Shown: positions 8,170 through 62,235, numbered from the stretch's first letter. The stretch: DNA of 64,000 nt from a virus (IMGVR_UViG_3300029543_000205:5606-69605), one strand, 5' to 3'. A program made the numbers and translations. Notes: a model not told the origin generated them from the sequence alone.

Positions 8170-11100
8170 TTACGCTCCTTGGAAACTGTAACCGTTCGCA
8201 TTGCGCTGTGTGGTTACTGCATCCGTTACTGTCTTGCCGCCAATCTCAACAATCGTCTGTTCTTTCTTGTCGGCCTGTGTCTTTGTGTTTCTTGAAATAT
8301 CATTCACAGCGGTTGTGATACCCAGATCATCCAAAGCCTCTTTTATGGCATCTTTCAGACCGCCGCCGGAATTAAGGGTAGCCTGTACAGTTCCCCGTGT
8401 GGAAACCTCTCTCGTAACTCTCTGAACAATGGCTTCATTCGTGAAATCACTACCGTAGTTGTTCTGGTAATCTTTCAATGCAGCATTGTCGATTTTCAGA
8501 CGTGTGCCGAGGTTCACTTCCATGTTTGAGAACGAATCCGTCCAGGATGTTACAAATCCTTTTGTTTTCGCTCCCTCTTTTTCGATTCCCTCGTTATATC
8601 CCTCTACGGAATACACACCTAACTGCCGGAATACCCTTGACGGAGAGTTTATATCCAACTTGTCCTTGAACCATGAGATAATACTGCTGCCCCATGATTC
8701 AATGTTGTTCTTGCAGGTGGAATACAGATTTCCTATACCGTTCTTAAAACCATCTACCACATTTTTTGCAATGTCATACCACTTGTCATAAGAACAGGTA
8801 TTTGTGAACCACGTTTTTACATTAGAAGCCCATGTTGTAATGTTGCTCTTGCAAGTCGTATAACTGTTTCCGATTTTCGTTTTGAAGCCGGAAATAATAT
8901 TCTCTGCATAGGTGCTCCACTTAGAGCTATTGATGCCTCCAAAACCACTATCAGAGAACCATGTTTTGAGGTTTGACGCCCATGTTGTGATATTACTTTT
9001 CGTATCTGTGTATGACAGTCCGATTTTGTTTCTGAAACCAGTTATGATATTTCCTGCATAAGTGGTCCATGTGGCATTGTTGATATTTCCGAATGAAGAT
9101 CCAGAAAACCAATCTTTCAGGCCACTCGCCCAAGTAGTAATGTTGTTCTTTGTGGTGGTATAGGTGTTTCCAACCTTTTCCCGGAAACCGGAAATGATAT
9201 TGTTTGCGTAGGTCTGCCAAGTATTGCTATTGATGTTTCCAAAACCGCTGCTCGTATACCATTCCTTAACTTTGCTCGCCCAGGTTGTGATGTTATCTTT
9301 TGTGGTGGTGTATGTGTTACCCACCTTTGTTTTGAAACCAGTGATAATATCATTTGCGTAGGTGGTCCATGTACCGTTATTCACTCCGCCGAATGAAGAA
9401 CTATTAAACCATTCCTTTGCCTTTGAGGCCCATGTGGTAATGTTGTCCTTGGTCTGTGTATAGGCATTTCCCACTTTTGTCTTGAAACCGGAGATAATGT
9501 CATTTGCATATCCGGTCCATGTTTCCACGTTGATCCCGCCAAATGATGAATTGTTGAACCACTCTTTAGCCTTAGTAGCCCAAGTCGTGATGCTGTCTTT
9601 CGTGGTGGTATAAGCATTGCCTATCTTGTCCTTAAAGCCGGTTATGATGTTCTGACCGTGGGTTTCCCAAGTCTCTTTGCAAATCTTTCCAAAACTCGTA
9701 CCCGAGAACCAGTCATTGACCTTTCCGGCCCACTCCGTAACTTTTGCTTGGCAGTCTGAGAATTTCTTTCCGATGCCTCCATTGAAAGCAGTGACAAGAT
9801 TGCTTCCAAGTGTGCTGAATACGGTTGAATCGGATGAACCACCTATGCCAAATATTCCTTTGACAACATCCGTCACATTTCCGAAACAACTCAACGCTGT
9901 CTGCAATGGTGCTGGCAAAAGGGATTTAGATATTCCACCAAGCAAACCACTGACTATTTTCTCTCCGACAGTATTTATTTCTCCATCATCAGATCCAATT
10001 CCGAACTTCTTTGATATTCCCTCAACAACGCTTGTTTTCAGTTCGTTCCAAATGGCGGTCCATGATACCCATTTAAACAAATTCTTGAACGTCCACTTGG
10101 CTGCAAATACCTTAAATACTGTTTTGAGAATTGTGTCCCAGTCAATCTCGGACATTGCCGTTCCTACGCCCTTTAGAAGTTCGTACCAATCTACCTCATC
10201 TATCAAAGTGTTAATCAGTGTGCATACACCAGTGATGAGGGAATTGATTGTACCTCCTGCATCTTTCCAGTTGATGGTTTTTACGGCTTTGTTAATTGCA
10301 CTCGCAAAGTCACTACCGATTTTCTTGAAATCAATCTTTGCAAGGAATTTTCCAATACCACTGAAAAGTGTCTTGATGCTGTTTCCGAGTGTCGTTCCGA
10401 CAAGTTCCCAGTCAATGTTTGTGATTGCCGTATTGAGGTTTGAACCAAGTCCAGAACAGAAACTATCGAAGCCGTCCTTAACTGTTTTCCAGTCGATGTT
10501 TTTCAGTGCCGTATTGACACCGCTTGCAAAGTTCTTTGCGATGTCCGTCCACGGAAATGTCTTTGAGAAATTCAGTACGGCGGTAAATACCCCATTCACG
10601 AAACCGGCAAATGTTTCTCCGATTCCGTCATAATCAATTCCGGCGATCGCATTGCCGAGAAGATTTCCGATTGCAGTTCCAAGTGAAGCCCAGTCCAACC
10701 CTTTGACAAATGTTTTTGCAAAAGTGATTGCTGAGTTTATCGTATTGGAAATTGCAGTGCCGATTTTCTTCCAAAGGTCCTCTGTCTGCAGGGCAGCGTT
10801 GATTGCATCAACAATGCCTTGTGCCAACCCCTTTGCAGTCTTATTTATCAGAGTCCAATCCAGAGTATCTAATGCGCCTATGATAAGGTTTGCAATGGCT
10901 GTTCCAAGACTGCTCCAGTGGAAGTTCTCAACGAATGAATCAACAAACTCAAACGCTGAGTTGATTGCCTGTGCTATGGTTACTCCGATTTCTGTAAATA
11001 ATCCCGGGGTTTCAAGGAAACCATTCAGGAATGTGGCGATACTCTTGGCGATCTTTCTCAGTGTTGCCTTAATTCCATCCCACGGAATGTTTTCGAGAGC

Positions 11101-12855
11101 TTCTTTTAGCTTCTCTCCGAACATTCTTCCTATCTCTGTGAAATCAGCATCCGCCCATGCGTCCTTAACCATTTCCGCAAGGTCTTTGTACTTATCAGCT
11201 ACCGCATCTGTCTCATATCCGCTTCCATCAGCTCCGCTGTTGCTGCCGCTGCCGCTTTTATCGTCACTCAGGATATTAAGCTCATCTATGCCGGTGGTAA
11301 GGTTCTTTGCCGCCTTTGCTGCGCTATTTAAGGAATCTGTATAATCTTTGTTCTGTCGTATTGCCTTGGTGTAGAACTTCTTGCCTGTAAGTGCTGAGAA
11401 GAACTGTGCCAACGCGTTTGTTGCTGCAACGAGCTTCTGAATCAGATAATCCAGAATTGGAGTAACCACATTCAGGATTGGTTCAAATGCAGTTGTCAGT
11501 GATGCTCCAAGCTGACGTAAATCGTTATAAAGAAGATTTACGTTTTTGTGAAACTCTGTTCCGGCTCTTTTTGAATAAATAACAAGGTTGTCGAATCCTG
11601 TTTTTACGAGTTCAAATAGGTGTGTAAACATTGAGCGCAGTAACATGAATGTTCCAAGTCGGAGGATGGAACCCAGTTTCTTTGCAAACGCTCCACTCTG
11701 TTTTTCAGAAAAACCAAGGCTCTCTCTGACACGCTTTTTGAGTTCCTTGAATTTGTTTATAATTGCAGCAATCCCAGAACGGATTTTATTCACTACCGTT
11801 TTCACGGCAGAAATTATTTTTTGCACCTCATTCTTTACGGCATTTGCTACCTGTCTTACGGCATTGATAATGGCAGTGAGTATTGTCAGTATGATACCGA
11901 TAATAGGAATTGCCGACTGTACTGCTTCCAATCCAACTGCCATAGACTGGAATCCGGCATTTGCCGCCATGCCCCCGGTTTCAATGGCCGGAAGAATTGA
12001 TGCAATTCCACTTAATATAGAAGAAAAAGTTCCAAGTCCGCATTTCTGTGCGGCATCCCCTATGGACTTAATGGACTTTGCCACATCCTCCATATTCTTA
12101 GGAGACTGTGAAACCGTTTCCTTGAACTGCTTAAACTGTTCCTGAGCCTGTCTGAGACCATTCACAGCTTCCTCATACTGACCGGTATCAAACCGTATCT
12201 TCCCACTCTCCATACCGCTAACAGTGGCTTTGTACTTATTGATCTGGTCTATGAGTTCCTGAATACGTCTATTAGCCGGATTTGTGTTTGCCTGATTGAG
12301 ACTTTCGTTTAAGTTTGTCTGTCCGGCTGCTGCACTCTGCCCGGCGGTTCCGAGGTTACTTTCCTCCTGCGCCAACTGACTTGCCGCTGATGCAGCACCG
12401 TTCATTGCTGCCTGTGCCTCTTCTGATGCGGTCGCAACGCTTTCTGTGGCTGCTGCTGCTTGCTGACCGTTCTCCAAAGGCTGTACACGTCTCTGCGCGC
12501 CCTCAGAATCAATTCTGATGCTGACACGGTTATTTGATCCGAGGTTTCCAAGTGCTGTGCTGACTTCCTTTACGGTAGCCGCAACCTCTTTCAGTTTTGC
12601 CGTATCAACTCCTGACAGAGACTTAATGGATGATGCAATGTTTCTCATGCCACTTCCGGCATTTTTAAGATCATCTCCAACGCCGGAGAAACCACGCATT
12701 ACATCAAGAATCTGTTTTAACTTTTCTGTATCTAATCCCTCAGTGATTTTCTTCATTGAGGTAAGAGCTTTTGTTACTTTATCAATACCACCGTCTGCCT
12801 TATCAGTGGTGGCTTCTATTTCCAATAAAATGCTATCTACTCTGTTATCAGGCAT
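8170..12855 (-). CDS. tail tape measure protein
   Basis: 1561 aa, coiled-coil N-terminus, long hydrophobic central segment, ~8 tandem 50-aa repeats (NITTWASKAKEWFNSSSFGG...), preceded by G/GT chaperone. Confidence 0.85.
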   Translation of the reverse strand: MPDNRVDSILLEIEATTDKADGGIDKVTKALTSMKKITEGLDTEKLKQILDVMRGFSGVGDDLKNAGSGMRNIASSIKSLSGVDTAKLKEVAATVKEVSTALGNLGSNNRVSIRIDSEGAQRRVQPLENGQQAAAATESVATASEEAQAAMNGAASAASQLAQEESNLGTAGQSAAAGQTNLNESLNQANTNPANRRIQELIDQINKYKATVSGMESGKIRFDTGQYEEAVNGLRQAQEQFKQFKETVSQSPKNMEDVAKSIKSIGDAAQKCGLGTFSSILSGIASILPAIETGGMAANAGFQSMAVGLEAVQSAIPIIGIILTILTAIINAVRQVANAVKNEVQKIISAVKTVVNKIRSGIAAIINKFKELKKRVRESLGFSEKQSGAFAKKLGSILRLGTFMLLRSMFTHLFELVKTGFDNLVIYSKRAGTEFHKNVNLLYNDLRQLGASLTTAFEPILNVVTPILDYLIQKLVAATNALAQFFSALTGKKFYTKAIRQNKDYTDSLNSAAKAAKNLTTGIDELNILSDDKSGSGSNSGADGSGYETDAVADKYKDLAEMVKDAWADADFTEIGRMFGEKLKEALENIPWDGIKATLRKIAKSIATFLNGFLETPGLFTEIGVTIAQAINSAFEFVDSFVENFHWSSLGTAIANLIIGALDTLDWTLINKTAKGLAQGIVDAINAALQTEDLWKKIGTAISNTINSAITFAKTFVKGLDWASLGTAIGNLLGNAIAGIDYDGIGETFAGFVNGVFTAVLNFSKTFPWTDIAKNFASGVNTALKNIDWKTVKDGFDSFCSGLGSNLNTAITNIDWELVGTTLGNSIKTLFSGIGKFLAKIDFKKIGSDFASAINKAVKTINWKDAGGTINSLITGVCTLINTLIDEVDWYELLKGVGTAMSEIDWDTILKTVFKVFAAKWTFKNLFKWVSWTAIWNELKTSVVEGISKKFGIGSDDGEINTVGEKIVSGLLGGISKSLLPAPLQTALSCFGNVTDVVKGIFGIGGSSDSTVFSTLGSNLVTAFNGGIGKKFSDCQAKVTEWAGKVNDWFSGTSFGKICKETWETHGQNIITGFKDKIGNAYTTTKDSITTWATKAKEWFNNSSFGGINVETWTGYANDIISGFKTKVGNAYTQTKDNITTWASKAKEWFNSSSFGGVNNGTWTTYANDIITGFKTKVGNTYTTTKDNITTWASKVKEWYTSSGFGNINSNTWQTYANNIISGFREKVGNTYTTTKNNITTWASGLKDWFSGSSFGNINNATWTTYAGNIITGFRNKIGLSYTDTKSNITTWASNLKTWFSDSGFGGINSSKWSTYAENIISGFKTKIGNSYTTCKSNITTWASNVKTWFTNTCSYDKWYDIAKNVVDGFKNGIGNLYSTCKNNIESWGSSIISWFKDKLDINSPSRVFRQLGVYSVEGYNEGIEKEGAKTKGFVTSWTDSFSNMEVNLGTRLKIDNAALKDYQNNYGSDFTNEAIVQRVTREVSTRGTVQATLNSGGGLKDAIKEALDDLGITTAVNDISRNTKTQADKKEQTIVEIGGKTVTDAVTTQRNANGYSFQGA
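8740..9700 (-). repeat. tandem ~150-bp coding repeats inside tape measure gene
   Basis: Protein repeats GFKxKxGNxYTxTKxNITTWAxxxKxWFxxSxFGxIN recur ~8 times. Confidence 0.55.
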
Positions 12856-12981: not shown

Positions 12982-13718
12982 CTACTTTTCTCTTCGCTGT
13001 CTCAATCGCTTATTATGTTCTGCGGCAAAGGCAGCGAATCTGTCTGCATCCGTCATTTTTGCTCCCGGCGGTGCGCTCTCTGTGCTGTTCATGCTTCTCG
13101 GTTGGCTTGGGTATGCCGGAGAATTTTTGCTAAGGAATATCGCCATGGCATCTACGACATACGAACCAACGGACCACGCCAATGTATCTATTGCCGTAGC
13201 CTGCTCTTTTGCCTCCATCTCTCTCTTCTTTTGGAATGGTTCTAATTTCTTAGGGTTCAGTTTCCAGAAAGTATCATAGGAAACACCATAGAGAAGAGCG
13301 TTTGGAAGCCAAACTTTATTGATAATCTCAGTAAACGATTTGTATTTGCTGAGATCTATTTCCTCTACTCTGTTGCCGCCTTGGTTTTCTTTCCGCTGTT
13401 CTTCGGAGTTTCCTCGGCTTCCTCGCCAAAACCCGCGGTTTTCATTGCCTCCGTAAACGCTCCCATGACTTCATCCATAGATCCGCCATATTTGAGATGT
13501 TCGCTTAAAATCTTCCCGGCTGTAGTAAGATCCTTTGTGCCGGTCAGTACCGCAATAATTGCTCTGATTGTCTTAAAAATCTTCATGTTCTCTCTGGTAT
13601 CATCATCCAGAAGTCCCATGACATCTACATCGTGATCTTCCAGATCACACATAAGGTTTGTAAAATCCAGTTCCGCTACTTTAATTTCCTTGGGACCATT
13701 CGCTGTCTGTAAAATCAT
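12982..13718 (-). CDS. tail assembly chaperone G (13365-13718) and G-T fusion via programmed -1 frameshift
   Basis: 117-aa G ORF; -1 frame is open from slippery GGGTTTT (plus 13428-13434) through 12982; T-frame ORF ends 127 bp before tape measure start. Confidence 0.55.
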
Positions 13719-15328: not shown

Positions 15329-15605
15329 CTATGAAGAGTTTTGAGTATTCATCAATCGGCAATTTCTGTACGGTTGATATGGTCTTGTCGTAGACAATAT
15401 CTTTACCAAATGGGGAGTCCTCGGCATTTCCTGAGTTCGGACTTACTCTCGCAAGCACACGAACCGGATTTGAATACTTCGGTATACTCTCCCCGGTAAG
15501 GTTGCCATCCTCGTCCACTTCATCCACCGTTCCGTCATAGGTCTGGTAATAAAAAGGAACTTGGTTCAATCTGAGGTCTTTAAGTCTCAGCTTCGGCATT
15601 GCCAT
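15174..15605 (-). CDS. head closure / head-tail adaptor protein
   Basis: 143-aa ORF in connector position. Confidence 0.4.
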   Translation of the reverse strand: MAMPKLRLKDLRLNQVPFYYQTYDGTVDEVDEDGNLTGESIPKYSNPVRVLARVSPNSGNAEDSPFGKDIVYDKTISTVQKLPIDEYSKLFIDVVPILNEDGSTDTEPDYICVCPKHDLQQNLWAIRKIKGNIHAGQNNDQSL

Positions 15606-15945
15606 CCCTCCTTAACAGACCGACATAGGTTTTGGGTGGAATCTTTGCCAAGGCCAACTCAATATCTTTCTTACCTGTCTGCCCCCAGTTCCGGGTAACT
15701 CCAAGCTCTGTGTGAGATACAAGTCCGCCCCTCGCATCATCAGAGTTTATGGCTTTCGCCAAATCATAGATTTCAAACTCATACCGGTTATAAAATCTCT
15801 CCAACTCTGCATCTGTCGGAATATCATCATCCGCCCAAAAGTGTTGATTTGCAGCCTGTTTCTGAGCTTTCACGAGGAGGACGGCAATCTGTTCGTCAGT
15901 AAGAGTTTCATCGTCTAAAATGACTTTCAACAATTTAGCGTCCAT
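15580..15945 (-). CDS. head-tail connector (gp6-like) protein
   Basis: 121-aa ORF immediately downstream of capsid gene. Confidence 0.4.
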   Translation of the reverse strand: MDAKLLKVILDDETLTDEQIAVLLVKAQKQAANQHFWADDDIPTDAELERFYNRYEFEIYDLAKAINSDDARGGLVSHTELGVTRNWGQTGKKDIELALAKIPPKTYVGLLRRDGNAEAET

Positions 15946-15960
15946 AATCCGTCCTCACTT

Positions 15961-16199
15961 TCTTACCCTTGCTGAGTTAAAAACTCTGCGATCAGCTTTG
16001 CTTTTACGGTTTCTTTCATGTCATACCCACGTTCCGTTGCGATAGCCTTAATCTGCGCTACTGTCAGAGCGTTAAGTTCTTCCTCTGTGTATTTCTTGTC
16101 AGTAGCCGTCTCTTCTGAAACCGCATCCGTTGATGTGGAAACAGAAGAATCAACTACCTCGGAACTACCGTCAAGGGTATGACCTGTTATTCCCCCCCC
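15961..16199 (-). other. candidate -1 frameshift C-terminal extension of major capsid protein (75 codons, Rho_N/SAP-like helical motif)
   Basis: G8 tract (plus C8 16192-16199) two codons before capsid stop; -1 frame open to TAA at 15961-15963 encoding ...KKYTEEELNALTVAQIKAIATERGYD...; no ATG start for that ORF. Confidence 0.35.
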
Positions 16200-17182
16200 G
16201 CTGTACCTGTTGTACCGCTTGCCGTGATCTTGCTAGGAAGATCTGTGGAAATATTAGTGAACTTCGCACTCATCCACTCAGGACCGTGATCCAGACCGAT
16301 CTGACCGAAGATCTGATAAGTTTCTCCTGCGCCTGTCTTAGCAAGCTGCTCTAAGAAGAAATTACCCTTACCAGGAACCATCTGATGAACAGGAGCCATG
16401 ATGGACGGATCGAACAGAACGGCAGTGCCGGCAGGCATGGTATCGAACAATGCGACTGCCACCTCTCCAAGAGGGGTTACTACGGTCTGTAACTTGATAC
16501 CGTTTACTTCTCTTCCGAGAGGAACGATAGTCAGGTTGTTCTGCTGAGCGTCAAGGTTGAGCTGCAACATAGTGGTTGCATCTACACCGAGAACGATGTT
16601 ATCTGTCTTTGCTCCCTGATCGTGAATGGACTTTAATCCCTCTGCTACAAGCCAGTAGGTAAGAGGTTTCTTTGCGAGATCGAGTATGTTGGTTGTAATC
16701 GCAGTCAGAAGTCCTCTGGTCTGGTTTGCCTCTGCATCAGTAGTAGCTTTCGCATACTTACCATTGATGAAAGTGTACTCAATATCCTGTGCGATCTTCG
16801 CCATTCTACGAGATACCTGGAACGCAAGTTCATCCATAGGATTTGCCTGCTGACCGGCTACGTTGATACCCTGCAGTGTACCCATGTTGCTCTGCTTTCC
16901 ATAAGAAATCGCTACGGACTTCTGGAAGATCTGAGTTACGTTGGTAAGCTGACTTCTGGTTACGATTTCCGGCTGTGGAGCGGTAAGGGATGCTGTCTCA
17001 GAAATCTTAGGCTGTTCGCCTGTTTCTGTGTTGTACTCCTGACCGCAAGTAAACTCTACATGATTGGTTACAAGAGGTCTTGCGCCAATCATAGTAGAGA
17101 ACGGTGTTGCCTGCTGCCCTTTAGCGAATAACATTCCGCTAAAATTAGGAACAGCGAATGATGTTGCTGTGCCCTGTGCCAT
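16187..17182 (-). CDS. major capsid protein
   Basis: 331 aa downstream of scaffold-like gene; size/position; Ala/Gly/Thr-rich. Confidence 0.65.
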   Translation of the reverse strand: MAQGTATSFAVPNFSGMLFAKGQQATPFSTMIGARPLVTNHVEFTCGQEYNTETGEQPKISETASLTAPQPEIVTRSQLTNVTQIFQKSVAISYGKQSNMGTLQGINVAGQQANPMDELAFQVSRRMAKIAQDIEYTFINGKYAKATTDAEANQTRGLLTAITTNILDLAKKPLTYWLVAEGLKSIHDQGAKTDNIVLGVDATTMLQLNLDAQQNNLTIVPLGREVNGIKLQTVVTPLGEVAVALFDTMPAGTAVLFDPSIMAPVHQMVPGKGNFFLEQLAKTGAGETYQIFGQIGLDHGPEWMSAKFTNISTDLPSKITASGTTGTAGGE

Positions 17183-59099: not shown

Positions 59100-59691
59100 T
59101 TAATGATGCTCACTCCCTCGTAACCTTTCTCAAACTCGTACCATGCGTATGCTACTGCACTACCGCCTCCGGCTTTCATTTCTTCAAAATTTCCGTTCTT
59201 GGCACATAAGATTCTGCTTCGAGATACATATACACATTTCGGAGGGTATTTCTTGAACAGTTCTCCCCTTGCCTTTCCCTCTAAGAACTGCAATTTGAGG
59301 AACATAAATACCTTTCTTCCGTCCGGTATCACATTCATAGCGTGTTCAACAAATTCTTTCGCGTATTTATATGGCGGATTCGTGATAATGTCTCCGTCCC
59401 ATATCTCATCAGTCTGCAGAAAATCTACGCCACCCTGTCCGTAACCTCTGTCGATAAGGTCTGTGCTCCGCACATCATACCCACGCTCTTTGAGTTTTTC
59501 AGATAAATGTCCTTGTCCTGCTGCGCACTCCCACACTTTTTGGCTGAGTACCGCCCCCCCGATAAGAGTGCGTCTATTGCGATAGGATCTGTTGCGTAGT
59601 AATCATTTGTTTCCCTTTCTTTGTCTGTATGGTTTGAAGCACCAAGGGTTGTGAAGATGCTTTTACCATTTCCGGTCCAATCTTTTCCCAT
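59087..59691 (-). pseudogene. phage N6-adenine DNA methyltransferase interrupted at a G7 tract (phase-OFF); two ORF fragments
   Basis: N-terminal fragment NDYYATDPIAIDALL..SGG (59425-59817) and C-terminal fragment WECAAGQGHL...IITNPPYK (59087-59536); plus C7 at 59554-59560; +1 G restores one frame. Confidence 0.5.
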
Positions 59692-59695
59692 ATAT

Positions 59696-60233
59696 TCATC
59701 CTTTCTGAATTTCTTCAAATACAATTTTCTGTGGCAATACTCCGTGGCAGACATAAACACTGCTAAACGGAGGATTGAGTGACGGTTTCTGTTCTTCGTA
59801 ACTCTTGAAATATGCAACTCTTCGGTTCATATACATAATCTCAAATTCGTGGTCTCTGAACATTTCAAACCGTCTCTGGCTTTCAAACAATCCAACCACT
59901 CCAACAAGCATTGCAAACGGTTTATCTAGGTCAAATAATCTCTCTATCACTTCTGTTTTCATAGAGTAAGGCGGATTACTTATGATGTAATCGCACCATT
60001 GCACCATTTCTCCTTGTTTCTGATACTGGAAGAAATCGTCTCCGTACTTTATGTGGGTTGCTTTTACGTCATACCCCCCCCCGATTGAAATTTTTGACAA
60101 ACAGGCTGTCCTCTGTATCAAAAGGACACCATATCTTTGCCCCTTTCGGAATGTATTTCATAATCGGTGCAACTGCGTAATCAGGTGTATAGAACTCGTC
60201 ATTGCCGCTTCCGGCCACTTTATCCATTTTCAT
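59696..60233 (-). pseudogene. paralogous phage N6-adenine DNA methyltransferase interrupted at a G9 tract; two ORF fragments
   Basis: N-terminal fragment NDEFYTPDYAVAPIM...NFNRGG (60069-60302), TGA right after tract; C-terminal fragment GGGYDVKATH...IISNPPYS (59696-60121); plus C9 60074-60082; -1 G fuses frames. Confidence 0.5.
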
Positions 60234-61638: not shown

Positions 61639-62235
61639 CTATCTCTGAGCCAAAAGTTCCTCATAAAGTCTCTTGTAGACATCTCTTTCTGCCGTAATCT
61701 TCGCAATTTCCAACTGCGTCTCCACATCCGGCAGAACGGTTTCTTTTACCACAACCGGCTCAGGTTCTTTCTTCTCAGGCTTCTCAACTTCATTTGCAGC
61801 TTCCGCCCATTTCTTTACCAGTTCATTTCCTTTGATGTTGGTTCCAATGCCAATGCTTACTGCAAGTGCCGCATCTATGCGTTTCATTTCAGCCATAGAG
61901 CACTGCCCTATGTAATCCCCAACCTTATCCTTATTCACGGTATCAATCTGTTCACAGAGCACCGTGGACGGATATTTTGAGCTGTTGATTTTAACGTGTG
62001 TCGGCAAGGGTTTCTTCTCCTGGGTTGTAAGATACACAATCTCCAGTATGGGACCGGCATTATTGCCAATATCATTGCTGATGATTACCGCCGGTCTACC
62101 CCCCCCCTGAACATTTCCGCTATATTCGTTATCATTGCGGATATAGAAGATTTCGCCTCTGTAATACTCTTTATTCATGGTTTCCTCCTTAATCCATGCC
62201 GTCATATAAACTCTCTGACGCATAAACCTGTTCAT
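61639..62235 (-). CDS. MazF/PemK-fold protein with C-terminal coiled-coil extension (probable start MNKEYYRG ~62178)
   Basis: GEIFYIRNDNEYSGNVQGGGRPAVIISNDIGNNAGPILEIVYLTT...STVLCEQIDTV matches MazF/PemK core; in-frame G9 tract encodes GGG. Confidence 0.5.
   Translation of the reverse strand: MNRFMRQRVYMTAWIKEETMNKEYYRGEIFYIRNDNEYSGNVQGGGRPAVIISNDIGNNAGPILEIVYLTTQEKKPLPTHVKINSSKYPSTVLCEQIDTVNKDKVGDYIGQCSMAEMKRIDAALAVSIGIGTNIKGNELVKKWAEAANEVEKPEKKEPEPVVVKETVLPDVETQLEIAKITAERDVYKRLYEELLAQR

Follow-up and report, generated by a model that had tools for sequence, protein, structure and literature searches.

Extension of capsid proteins by frameshifting is established in bacteriophages T3 and T7 (-1), in the Lactobacillus phage A2 (-1) and in the Listeria phages A118 and A500 (-1) and PSA (+1) (PMC5009743). 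The review by Atkins et al. also points out that accessory domains occur in frame and out of frame as if it made no difference (PMC5009743). In this study, we report the analysis of a 64,000-nucleotide stretch of viral DNA (IMGVR_UViG_3300029543_000205:5606-69605, hereafter the window), in which the major capsid protein gene carries a run of eight G residues (G8) just before its stop codon and the -1 frame stays open for 75 further codons. Comparison of this junction with those of related loci indicates that the capsid protein is likely to be produced also with this extension as a trans-frame C-terminus, by programmed -1 ribosomal frameshifting.

The capsid gene junction and selection on the -1 frame

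The capsid gene occupies positions 16187-17182 on the minus strand (zero frame in the open reading frame (ORF) list; stop TAA at 16187-16189) and encodes 331 amino acids. The product matches Pfam SU10_MCP (PF17236; E 4.8e-51, 174 bits against a cut-off of 24.1) and PHROG 1328 (major head protein). For fold comparison the AlphaFold2 (AF2) model of P0002 was used, an in-frame relative whose capsid is 81% identical to the window protein, and Foldseek aligned it with the capsids of Pa223, VP1, SU10 and HK97 (E 1e-16 to 1e-11). The window protein is an SU10-type (PF17236/DUF5309) major capsid protein of the HK97 fold.

The 3' end of the gene reads ACA GCG GGG GGG GAA TAA, with the G8 run at 16192-16199 and the GAA codon at 16190-16192. 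In the -1 frame the same region is read as GGG GGG GGA ATA ACA GGT CAT and onwards, and the candidate -1 shift site, C GGG GGG GGA ATA A (16187-16200, minus strand), was delimited from the sequence and from the motif kept in relatives. The zero-frame site GC[G GGG GGG] GAA TAA includes G GGG GAA plus stop, which is the motif found family-wide, and the G8 allele adds an all-G heptamer of the form X XXY YYZ one codon ahead of the stop. Re-pairing at G GGG GAA is perfect for tRNA-Gly and involves one G.U pair for tRNA-Glu. In the window the open -1 frame reaches back over the last 14 capsid codons (16191-16232, minus strand), and any shift has to fall within this overlap; in relatives the overlap shrinks to 7-10 codons, and the slip motif is its sole conserved element.

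The extension comprises 75 sense codons (16190-15966, minus strand; ITGHTLDGSS...YTEEELNALTVAQIKAIATERGYDMKETVKAKLIAEFLTQQG) and ends at a TAA at 15963-15965. Its first ATG, GTG or TTG is codon 57, and for this reason the ORF listing shows nothing in the extension frame. From the capsid stop to the next ATG (15945) there are 241 nt. The initial annotation had described the G8 tract near the capsid stop and a 75-codon -1 frame without a start of its own, and the sequence is as described; the figures given there for the extension stop (15961) and for the gap (224 bp) are replaced by those above. Given the base composition of the strand, 75 stop-free codons would arise by chance in about 0.8% of cases, and the comparative evidence is far stronger than this figure.

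About 340 loci with related capsid proteins (L numbers) were gathered from IMG/VR, GTDB genomes, JGI metagenomes and look-ups of the exact protein, and 47 metagenome contigs were found by a DNA-pattern scan. The comparative evidence comes from metagenomes, metagenome-assembled genomes and one isolate prophage. The isolate, Diplocloster hominis CSJ-3 (L081; CCG GGG GAA TAG), belongs to the frameshifted set and thereby identifies the host group as human-gut Lachnospiraceae. Searches of GenBank phages at nucleotide and protein level turned up neither a closely related cultured phage nor an entry annotated with slippage.

The exact 331-residue protein is indexed in 374 blocks of a public assembly collection. 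Ten independent samples were read (L279-L288), and in all ten the run is G8 and the extension follows in the -1 frame, against a background of different polymorphisms nearby; G8 is therefore not an error of this assembly. The initial annotation had considered that reads might show G9, making the extension a plain part of the capsid gene, and none of the ten assemblies has it. Across the family, a G5 run was counted in 84 loci from IMG/VR and genomes and in 46 of the 47 metagenome contigs; L005 has G7, and the window and L279-L288 have G8. Its length is 2 modulo 3 in about 140 of 143 assemblies. Frame-changing alleles number only three: L063 and L298 are in-frame G6 versions of G5 phages (the L298 contig has a coverage of 2.95x), and L006 is a G6 derived from G7, by which the extension comes to lie in the +1 frame.

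These run lengths bear on phase variation at the DNA level, in which G8 would expand and contract and a subpopulation of G9 genomes would encode the fusion by standard translation. G8 is long enough for slipped-strand mispairing, the three G6 alleles show that indels occur, and two methyltransferase genes in the window are split at G9 and G7 runs. Such a mechanism seems highly unlikely nonetheless, as the G5 of most relatives is too short for efficient slippage, some relatives have no run at all and only heptamers such as G GGA AAC, and frame-changing alleles are so rare, with one of the two in-frame cases in the low-coverage contig. No fused capsid protein of more than 90% identity was found among 5.8 billion clusters, and phase variation leaves the in-register conservation of X XXY YYZ unexplained. 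The phase-variable tract which the initial annotation had offered as an alternative is thus not favoured as the main mechanism.

In order to relate slip motif and extension, 174 unique junction regions were tabulated, and X XXY YYZ was examined at two positions. In 49 of the 174 the -1 frame extends for 50 codons or more with no early start, and every one of these 49 has a slip motif; the X XXY YYZ heptamer occurs in none of the 125 junctions that lack such an extension. The +1 frame shuts within 1-5 codons in all 49. Among the best 120 protein clusters at 90% identity, 55 end in ..GE*, ..GN*, ..GEP* or ..NP*, which are the translated slip motifs, and two loci (L001 and L003) have no ATG, GTG or TTG anywhere in the extension. 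Ratios of nonsynonymous to synonymous change (dN/dS) were calculated by the method of Nei and Gojobori (NG86) for the 41-codon module in eight frameshifted lineages. In the extension frame dN was 0.13-0.36 and dS ranged from 0.86 to saturated, giving dN/dS of at most 0.35; the same DNA yielded values near 1 and near 4 when read in the other two frames. Purifying selection acts on the extension in the -1 frame only. The frameshift reading of the initial annotation gains strong support from the comparison with relatives, and a conserved extension ORF, stop-free and in the -1 frame, is found in about 140 assemblies.

The same data weigh against a decaying remnant, i.e. an ancestral in-frame domain which a frameshift mutation separated from the capsid gene and which has ceased to be expressed. 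In-frame ancestors or relatives do exist, and the short form is evidently enough for the capsids of relatives that have no extension. Dead DNA would gather stops and indels, whereas none of the roughly 140 frameshifted assemblies has a stop in the extension; synonymous change between the frameshifted lineages is saturated at a low dN/dS, and slip motifs are either kept or swapped for other slip motifs. A remnant is, on these grounds, scarcely credible.

Architectures and nature of the C-terminal module

The same C-terminal module was found in four architectures: in the -1 frame behind a G run, in the -1 frame behind another slip site, as an in-frame fusion, and as a separate protein. The first is that of the window and of the roughly 140 independent assemblies with G GGG GAA plus stop, in which the -1 frame carries the module after N GGG GGA ATA A, i.e. 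zero-frame xxG GGG GAA TAR.

In the second architecture, seen in relatives whose capsids are about 60-80% identical, the module follows other slip sequences. These are CTG GGA AAC TGA (heptamer G GGA AAC; L074 and L295), CTG GGA AAT TAA (G GGA AAT; L294), GTG GGA AAA TAG (G GGA AAA; L197), GTG GGG GGA TAA (G GGG GGA; L123), GTA AAC CCG TAA (A AAC CCG; L293), GAA AAC CCT TAA (A AAC CCT; L129), GCC CCA AAA GAC TGA (C CCA AAA; L085, reportedly also the heptamer of phage A2) and ACG GGG GAA CCG TAA (L292), where the non-canonical G GGG GAA lies one codon ahead of the stop. Except for L292, each of these contains a perfect X XXY YYZ heptamer that is in register and lies 0-1 codon ahead of the stop.

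Longer extensions were also observed. In L085 and L289 the -1 extension runs for about 190-200 codons and comprises an additional domain of about 120 amino acids (…GTFPYVEGYEQF… / …GTLKYVTGYTEF…) followed by the same terminal module; the junction shared by L289 and L290 is TCG GGG GAA TAA. L129 has a different -1 extension of 242 codons which lacks the module, and the long extensions of L085 and L129 match PHROG 31690.

In-frame fusions without a slip site, the third architecture, were found in P0002-5, 7-11, 20, 25, 28, 93 and 94 (376-398 amino acids, query coverage 99-100%) and in L065 and L083. One base parts in-frame from frameshifted forms, as in L063 versus L030 and in L065 versus L074; L065 (TTG GGG AAC CTG ACG) has one base more than L074 (CTG GGA AAC TGA CG), and its heptamer is destroyed.

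In the fourth architecture the module ends a separate protein of about 120-160 amino acids, which has its own ribosome binding site (RBS) and ATG and lies directly after a normally ending capsid gene (L060, L062, L079, L082, L084, L086 and L087). Here it stands behind an N-terminal domain of about 55 amino acids. These stand-alone proteins follow the pattern M..YEVIKxFxDLQDNxHPYxVGDxFPRxG…, then an acidic linker and a C-terminus resembling a helix-extended loop-helix (HeH) domain; they match PHROG 390 and 3673 ('Arc-like repressor') despite their location in the head module. Further relatives have in-frame Big_2 (PF02368) or PF18316 domains, or no extension at all, with junctions ending ..TGA*.

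Common to many -1 loci is the beginning of the extension (ITGHTL, ITGYSL, VSYTLNGGS, IEGYSS, IKGYSL), where the motif [GS]-[YH]-[ST]-[LYS], located 2-4 residues past the junction, is kept at the peptide level with synonymous variation. This motif might serve as a docking element or belong to the recoding signal.

In the window, the first 33 extension residues (16092-16190, minus strand; ITGHTLDGSSEVVDSSVSTSTDAVSEETATDKK) form a linker rich in Ser, Thr, Asp and Glu, which is predicted to be disordered; the AF2 confidence score (predicted local distance difference test, pLDDT) is below 50 at extension residues 1-4 and 9-22, with block means of 45-51 across the first 30. Linker length and sequence differ among relatives. 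The remaining 42 residues (15966-16091, minus strand; YTEEELNALTVAQIKAIATERGYDMKETVKAKLIAEFLTQQG) form the module, which was delimited as helix-extended loop-helix by alignment, profile and AF2. Helices are predicted at extension residues 36-40, 44-54 and 63-74 and an extended segment at 55-62, with a pLDDT of about 90, and the same short helix-helix-loop-helix is predicted in P0002, likewise with a pLDDT of about 90. The module consensus is YTEDELNAMTVAQIKALAxELGYxITKTxKADIIAEFLxQQG. Eleven columns are invariant in one alignment (A1), among them L8, T12, I16, A20, Y25, I36, F39 and L40, and G24, the Gly before the loop, is nearly invariant. Another alignment (A4) misplaced linker residues over the capsid domain, and only its C-terminal 45 columns are meaningful.

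A profile built from 14 diverse copies of the module matches the C-terminal domain of FluMu gp35 (PDB 2OUT) at E 2.3e-4. Rho_N was matched below threshold by 8 of the 14 relatives (best E 6e-4) and SAP by 4 of the 14. The window extension itself gave no match to Rho_N (PF07498), and its SAP match (PF02037; E 0.083) reached 13 bits against a cut-off of 23.9; a stand-alone homologue reached 24.8 bits against the Rho_N cut-off of 24.9. The best Foldseek neighbours were the C-terminal domain of T4 EndoVII (root mean square deviation 1.4 A over 39 residues) and the PIAS1 SAP domain, and the model of the 75-residue extension, its domain being so small, gave no significant E-value in Foldseek. The Rho_N/SAP-like motif named in the initial annotation therefore holds as a predicted fold and a sub-threshold similarity; membership of the extension in either Pfam family was rejected, as the curated cut-offs are not reached. 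From profile and model comparison the module is best described as Rho_N/SAP/HeH-like, and as a certified member of none of these Pfam families.

As to function, we infer from what SAP, HeH and Rho_N domains do elsewhere that the extension may bind nucleic acid or another polyanion, or may anchor something at the capsid; this is a guess by analogy. The module is probably on the outside of the capsid, judging by relatives that carry immunoglobulin-like (Ig-like) Big_2 domains at the same C-terminal position.

Other genes around the capsid gene are those of a head module, including a Mu F-like protein, a gene in the scaffold position and a gp10-like gene. Downstream, the next head gene (15580-15945, minus strand; 121 amino acids in the ORF list) has its own ATG, 17 nt past the extension stop, and occupies the position of a head-tail connector or adaptor. 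Its product has no match in Pfam or PHROG; in the relative L291 the gene at the same position carries PF05135 (Phage_connect_1). A scan for promoters and terminators found nothing on the coding strand within the gap between the capsid and connector genes.

Proposed recoding at the slip site

In the proposed mechanism most ribosomes would read ...GCG GGG GGG GAA and stop at TAA, giving the 331-residue capsid protein. A minority would slip one base back on the G run and continue through ATA ACA GGT for 75 codons. Slippage could occur by either of two routes: peptidyl-tRNA-Gly could re-pair from GGG to GGG, with or without a simultaneous move of tRNA-Glu from GAA to GGA; alternatively, tRNA-Glu could slip with the stop codon still unread in the A site. 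The product would be a capsid subunit of 406 amino acids, bearing a flexible acidic and Ser/Thr-rich linker and the 42-residue module at its C-terminus, and such extended subunits would co-assemble into the shell at sub-stoichiometric numbers.

We infer that the shift is ribosomal, and the slipping tRNA is likewise approached here through the variants of the site. All slip motifs seen in relatives permit -1 re-pairing, with the zero-frame stop 0-1 codon away. L185 (ACG TGG GAA TAA) permits only the movement of tRNA-Glu from GAA to GGA at the stop. L292 (GGG GAA CCG TAA) leaves no room for a slip at the stop and suggests G GGG (GAA) as the site. The two slip modes may both occur. The G8 of the window corresponds to the G5 of the family plus one Gly codon, and we conjecture that its extra all-G heptamer probably raises slipperiness, including some slippage of DNA or RNA polymerase. 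The efficiency of frameshifting may be low, as all-G heptamers are very poor in E. coli; even 1% shifting would give a few extended copies per capsid.

A change of frame could also be brought about by RNA polymerase, which would add a G on the G8 run so that a G9 fraction of the mRNA encodes the fusion. The homopolymer has eight residues; documented cases of bacterial transcriptional slippage involve runs of about nine or more A or T. Transcriptional slippage is an established route of frame change in bacteria and mobile elements (PMC5009743). The long homopolymer is not conserved in the family, where the consensus is G5 or no run and G8 belongs to this allele only, and relatives with G5 or heptamers cannot use this route yet keep the architecture. 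As the explanation of the locus it is very unlikely indeed; at most it adds to ribosomal slippage in the G8 allele.

Several observations weigh against ribosomal frameshifting. G GGG GAA is non-canonical, since re-pairing of tRNA-Glu in the A site needs a central G.U. All-G heptamers are among the poorest in E. coli, where G_GG.G_GG.U shifted at 0.018% without a stimulator, and G-rich tetramers can serve there as Shine-Dalgarno (SD) sequences for weak initiation at an AUA in the -1 frame (PMC4066793). An AUA does follow the G run in the window. L185, whose slip site is poor, has an ATG as codon 7 of its extension, and this locus may be atypical. In L296 (CTG GGG GAA TGA CGG) the codon that overlaps the stop is ATG (ATGA). 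Single-sequence folds of 16 representatives, RNAalifold on 11 and a z-scored fold of the window showed no conserved hairpin or pseudoknot 5-9 nt downstream of the slip site; no conserved upstream SD-like element was seen, and an Rfam scan gave no relevant match.

Some of these observations would suit a separate protein of about 8 kDa, made by termination and reinitiation or by weak SD-driven initiation at a near-cognate codon overlapping the stop, namely AUA in A-UAA, or CUG or AUG with UGA, the G run being SD-like. It is consistent with the stand-alone HeH/LEM genes that many phages have between capsid and connector, with the weak AUA initiation driven by G_GG.G in E. coli (PMC4066793) and with the ATGA junction of L296, where the gene caller had annotated a 59-amino-acid ORF. 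The extension of L296 might also be made separately through translational coupling, and independent translation in some members is conceivable. For the locus in the window, this explanation appears very improbable. Relatives keep the slippery pattern but not a start at the codon overlapping the stop, which reads TTA in L294 and L129 and GTA in L293. Only 1 nt separates the G run from the AUA, less than an SD sequence needs, and the stand-alone forms all have the extra N-terminal domain of about 55 amino acids, an RBS and an ATG, which the window lacks. In-frame fusions show, moreover, that the module functions when covalently attached at the capsid C-terminus.

Two kinds of RNA structure near the junction were considered as stimulators of -1 frameshifting and set aside. 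In a conserved stem the slip site itself pairs with GGTAGTTCC, 20-27 nt downstream; such a stem is impossible while the ribosome occupies the slip site. Strong hairpins begin 26-33 nt downstream, with a 3' arm formed by the sequence coding for YTEEEL, and are too distant from the slip site to be classical stimulators. In L073 and L076 such a hairpin has 13 bp and lies about 26-70 nt past the capsid stop, formed by perfect pairing of the Ser/Asp-rich linker codons GATTCTTCCTCTG with those for YTEEEL CAGAGGAAGAATT; a long hairpin with imperfect pairing occupies the corresponding part of the window (16100-16158, minus strand; z = -2.9 for the whole segment). The adjacent stop codon is the sole conserved candidate stimulator. 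Stimulatory elements are common, and not obligatory, at programmed -1 frameshift sites.

A broader proposal, which we put forward as doubtful, is that G GGG GAA plus stop is a distinct, structure-independent -1 signal, widespread in phages of Lachnospiraceae, at which the peptidyl-tRNA slips back at a waiting stop codon. The signal would set the dose of a polyanion-binding SAP/HeH module displayed on the capsid, which would bind nucleic acid or some other polyanion, such as extracellular DNA, teichoic acid or mucus. The module would have moved repeatedly among the forms of separate protein, in-frame fusion, frameshifted extension and frameshifted extension behind an extra domain.

Significance and comparison with known systems

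The 241-nt stretch was left empty by gene callers in all ten samples, and in hundreds of assemblies it is either empty or filled with spurious internal ORFs; a probable virion component is in this way systematically missing from annotations. The uncultured lineage is a common and abundant human-gut prophage. Its relatives offer a natural series, replicated many times over, for the study of -1 frameshifting in Clostridia, with at least eight slip-site variants, in-frame fusions and stand-alone genes; to our knowledge, almost nothing has been measured on -1 frameshifting in this group. The widespread HeH/Rho_N-like 'gene after the capsid gene' is here tied physically to the capsid protein, which provides a hypothesis for the site of action of the module. 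A literature search on the function of capsid-adjacent HeH proteins returned an annotation table only, and we know of no established function for capsid-adjacent HeH/LEM proteins.

Other sites of actual or possible recoding were observed in the window. The tail assembly chaperone gene (13365-13718, minus strand) has a canonical G GGT TTT at codon 95 (13428-13434), from which the -1 frame continues for about 150 codons to about 12982, reaching the tape-measure gene (8170-12855). This is the classical G/GT frameshift of long-tailed phages, and its presence in the same phage counts in favour of frameshifting at the capsid gene. At 60074-60082 a run of C9 on the plus strand (G9 on the coding minus strand) splits a DNA methyltransferase gene (…IISNPPYS…) into two frames, and this gene is a candidate for phase variation, for frameshifting or for a homopolymer error. 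The adjacent methyltransferase (…DIITNPPYKY…) shifts frame at 59554-59560, C7 on the plus strand and G7 on the minus strand (…ALLSGG | GGAVLSQKVWEC…). A further C9 on the plus strand (62099-62107) is read in frame as G9 (QGGGRP) inside the intact ORF 61639-62235 (minus strand), which by eye looks MazF/PemK-like (..GGGRPAVIISND..); a one-base change in this run would truncate the protein.

The capsid extension is similar to the 10A/10B system of T7 and T3 in that the gene encodes an HK97-fold capsid protein, a -1 shift would take place in its last codons and a minor, C-terminally extended subunit would co-assemble; as in T7, the extension is not Ig-like (PMC5009743). It differs from T7, a podovirus of Enterobacteria, in that the capsid families are unrelated, the slip sequence is another one and the T7 extension is not HeH/SAP-like; in the window, moreover, the zero-frame stop comes directly after the slip site.

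It likewise resembles the systems of A2 (gp5A/gp5B), A118, A500 and PSA, temperate siphoviruses of Firmicutes in which recoding at the 3' end of a head gene gives a second head component, as proposed here. In A2 and the Listeria phages, as in the window, the same phage recodes a tail gene as well (PMC5009743). The A2 extension is Ig-like (PMC5009743), unlike the helix-extended loop-helix module found here, and the capsid gene of PSA has a 3' pseudoknot stimulator (PMC5009743), of which no counterpart was found at the usual distance. The tail chaperone G/GT frameshift offers a parallel in that one gene gives short and extended products at a fixed ratio; it acts on a different gene, which encodes assembly chaperones and not subunits of the virion shell.

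With respect to the accessory domain, the locus resembles the Ig-like domain additions of Fraser et al., as far as these are summarised in PMC5009743, in that C-terminal domains are found either in frame or behind a slip site. Within the limits of that summary it differs from them in that the mobile module is not Ig-like and that a third set of relatives has it as a separate small protein. In module type, and in its slot between the capsid and gp6-like connector genes, it resembles ORF12 of the Streptococcus agalactiae phage vB_Sags-UPM1 (PMC10221047), one of the small HeH/LEM proteins found in unrelated phages of Firmicutes. ORF12 and FluMu gp35 are separate genes with starts of their own, whereas the copy in the window is start-less and in the -1 frame.

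The case is unsurprising in kind, as both the mechanism and the evolutionary pattern are already known from model phages. It differs from the known cases by the lack of a detectable RNA stimulator, by the non-canonical G GGG GAA plus stop as the dominant slip motif, by the SU10-type capsid protein and by the HeH-like cargo which this protein would carry.

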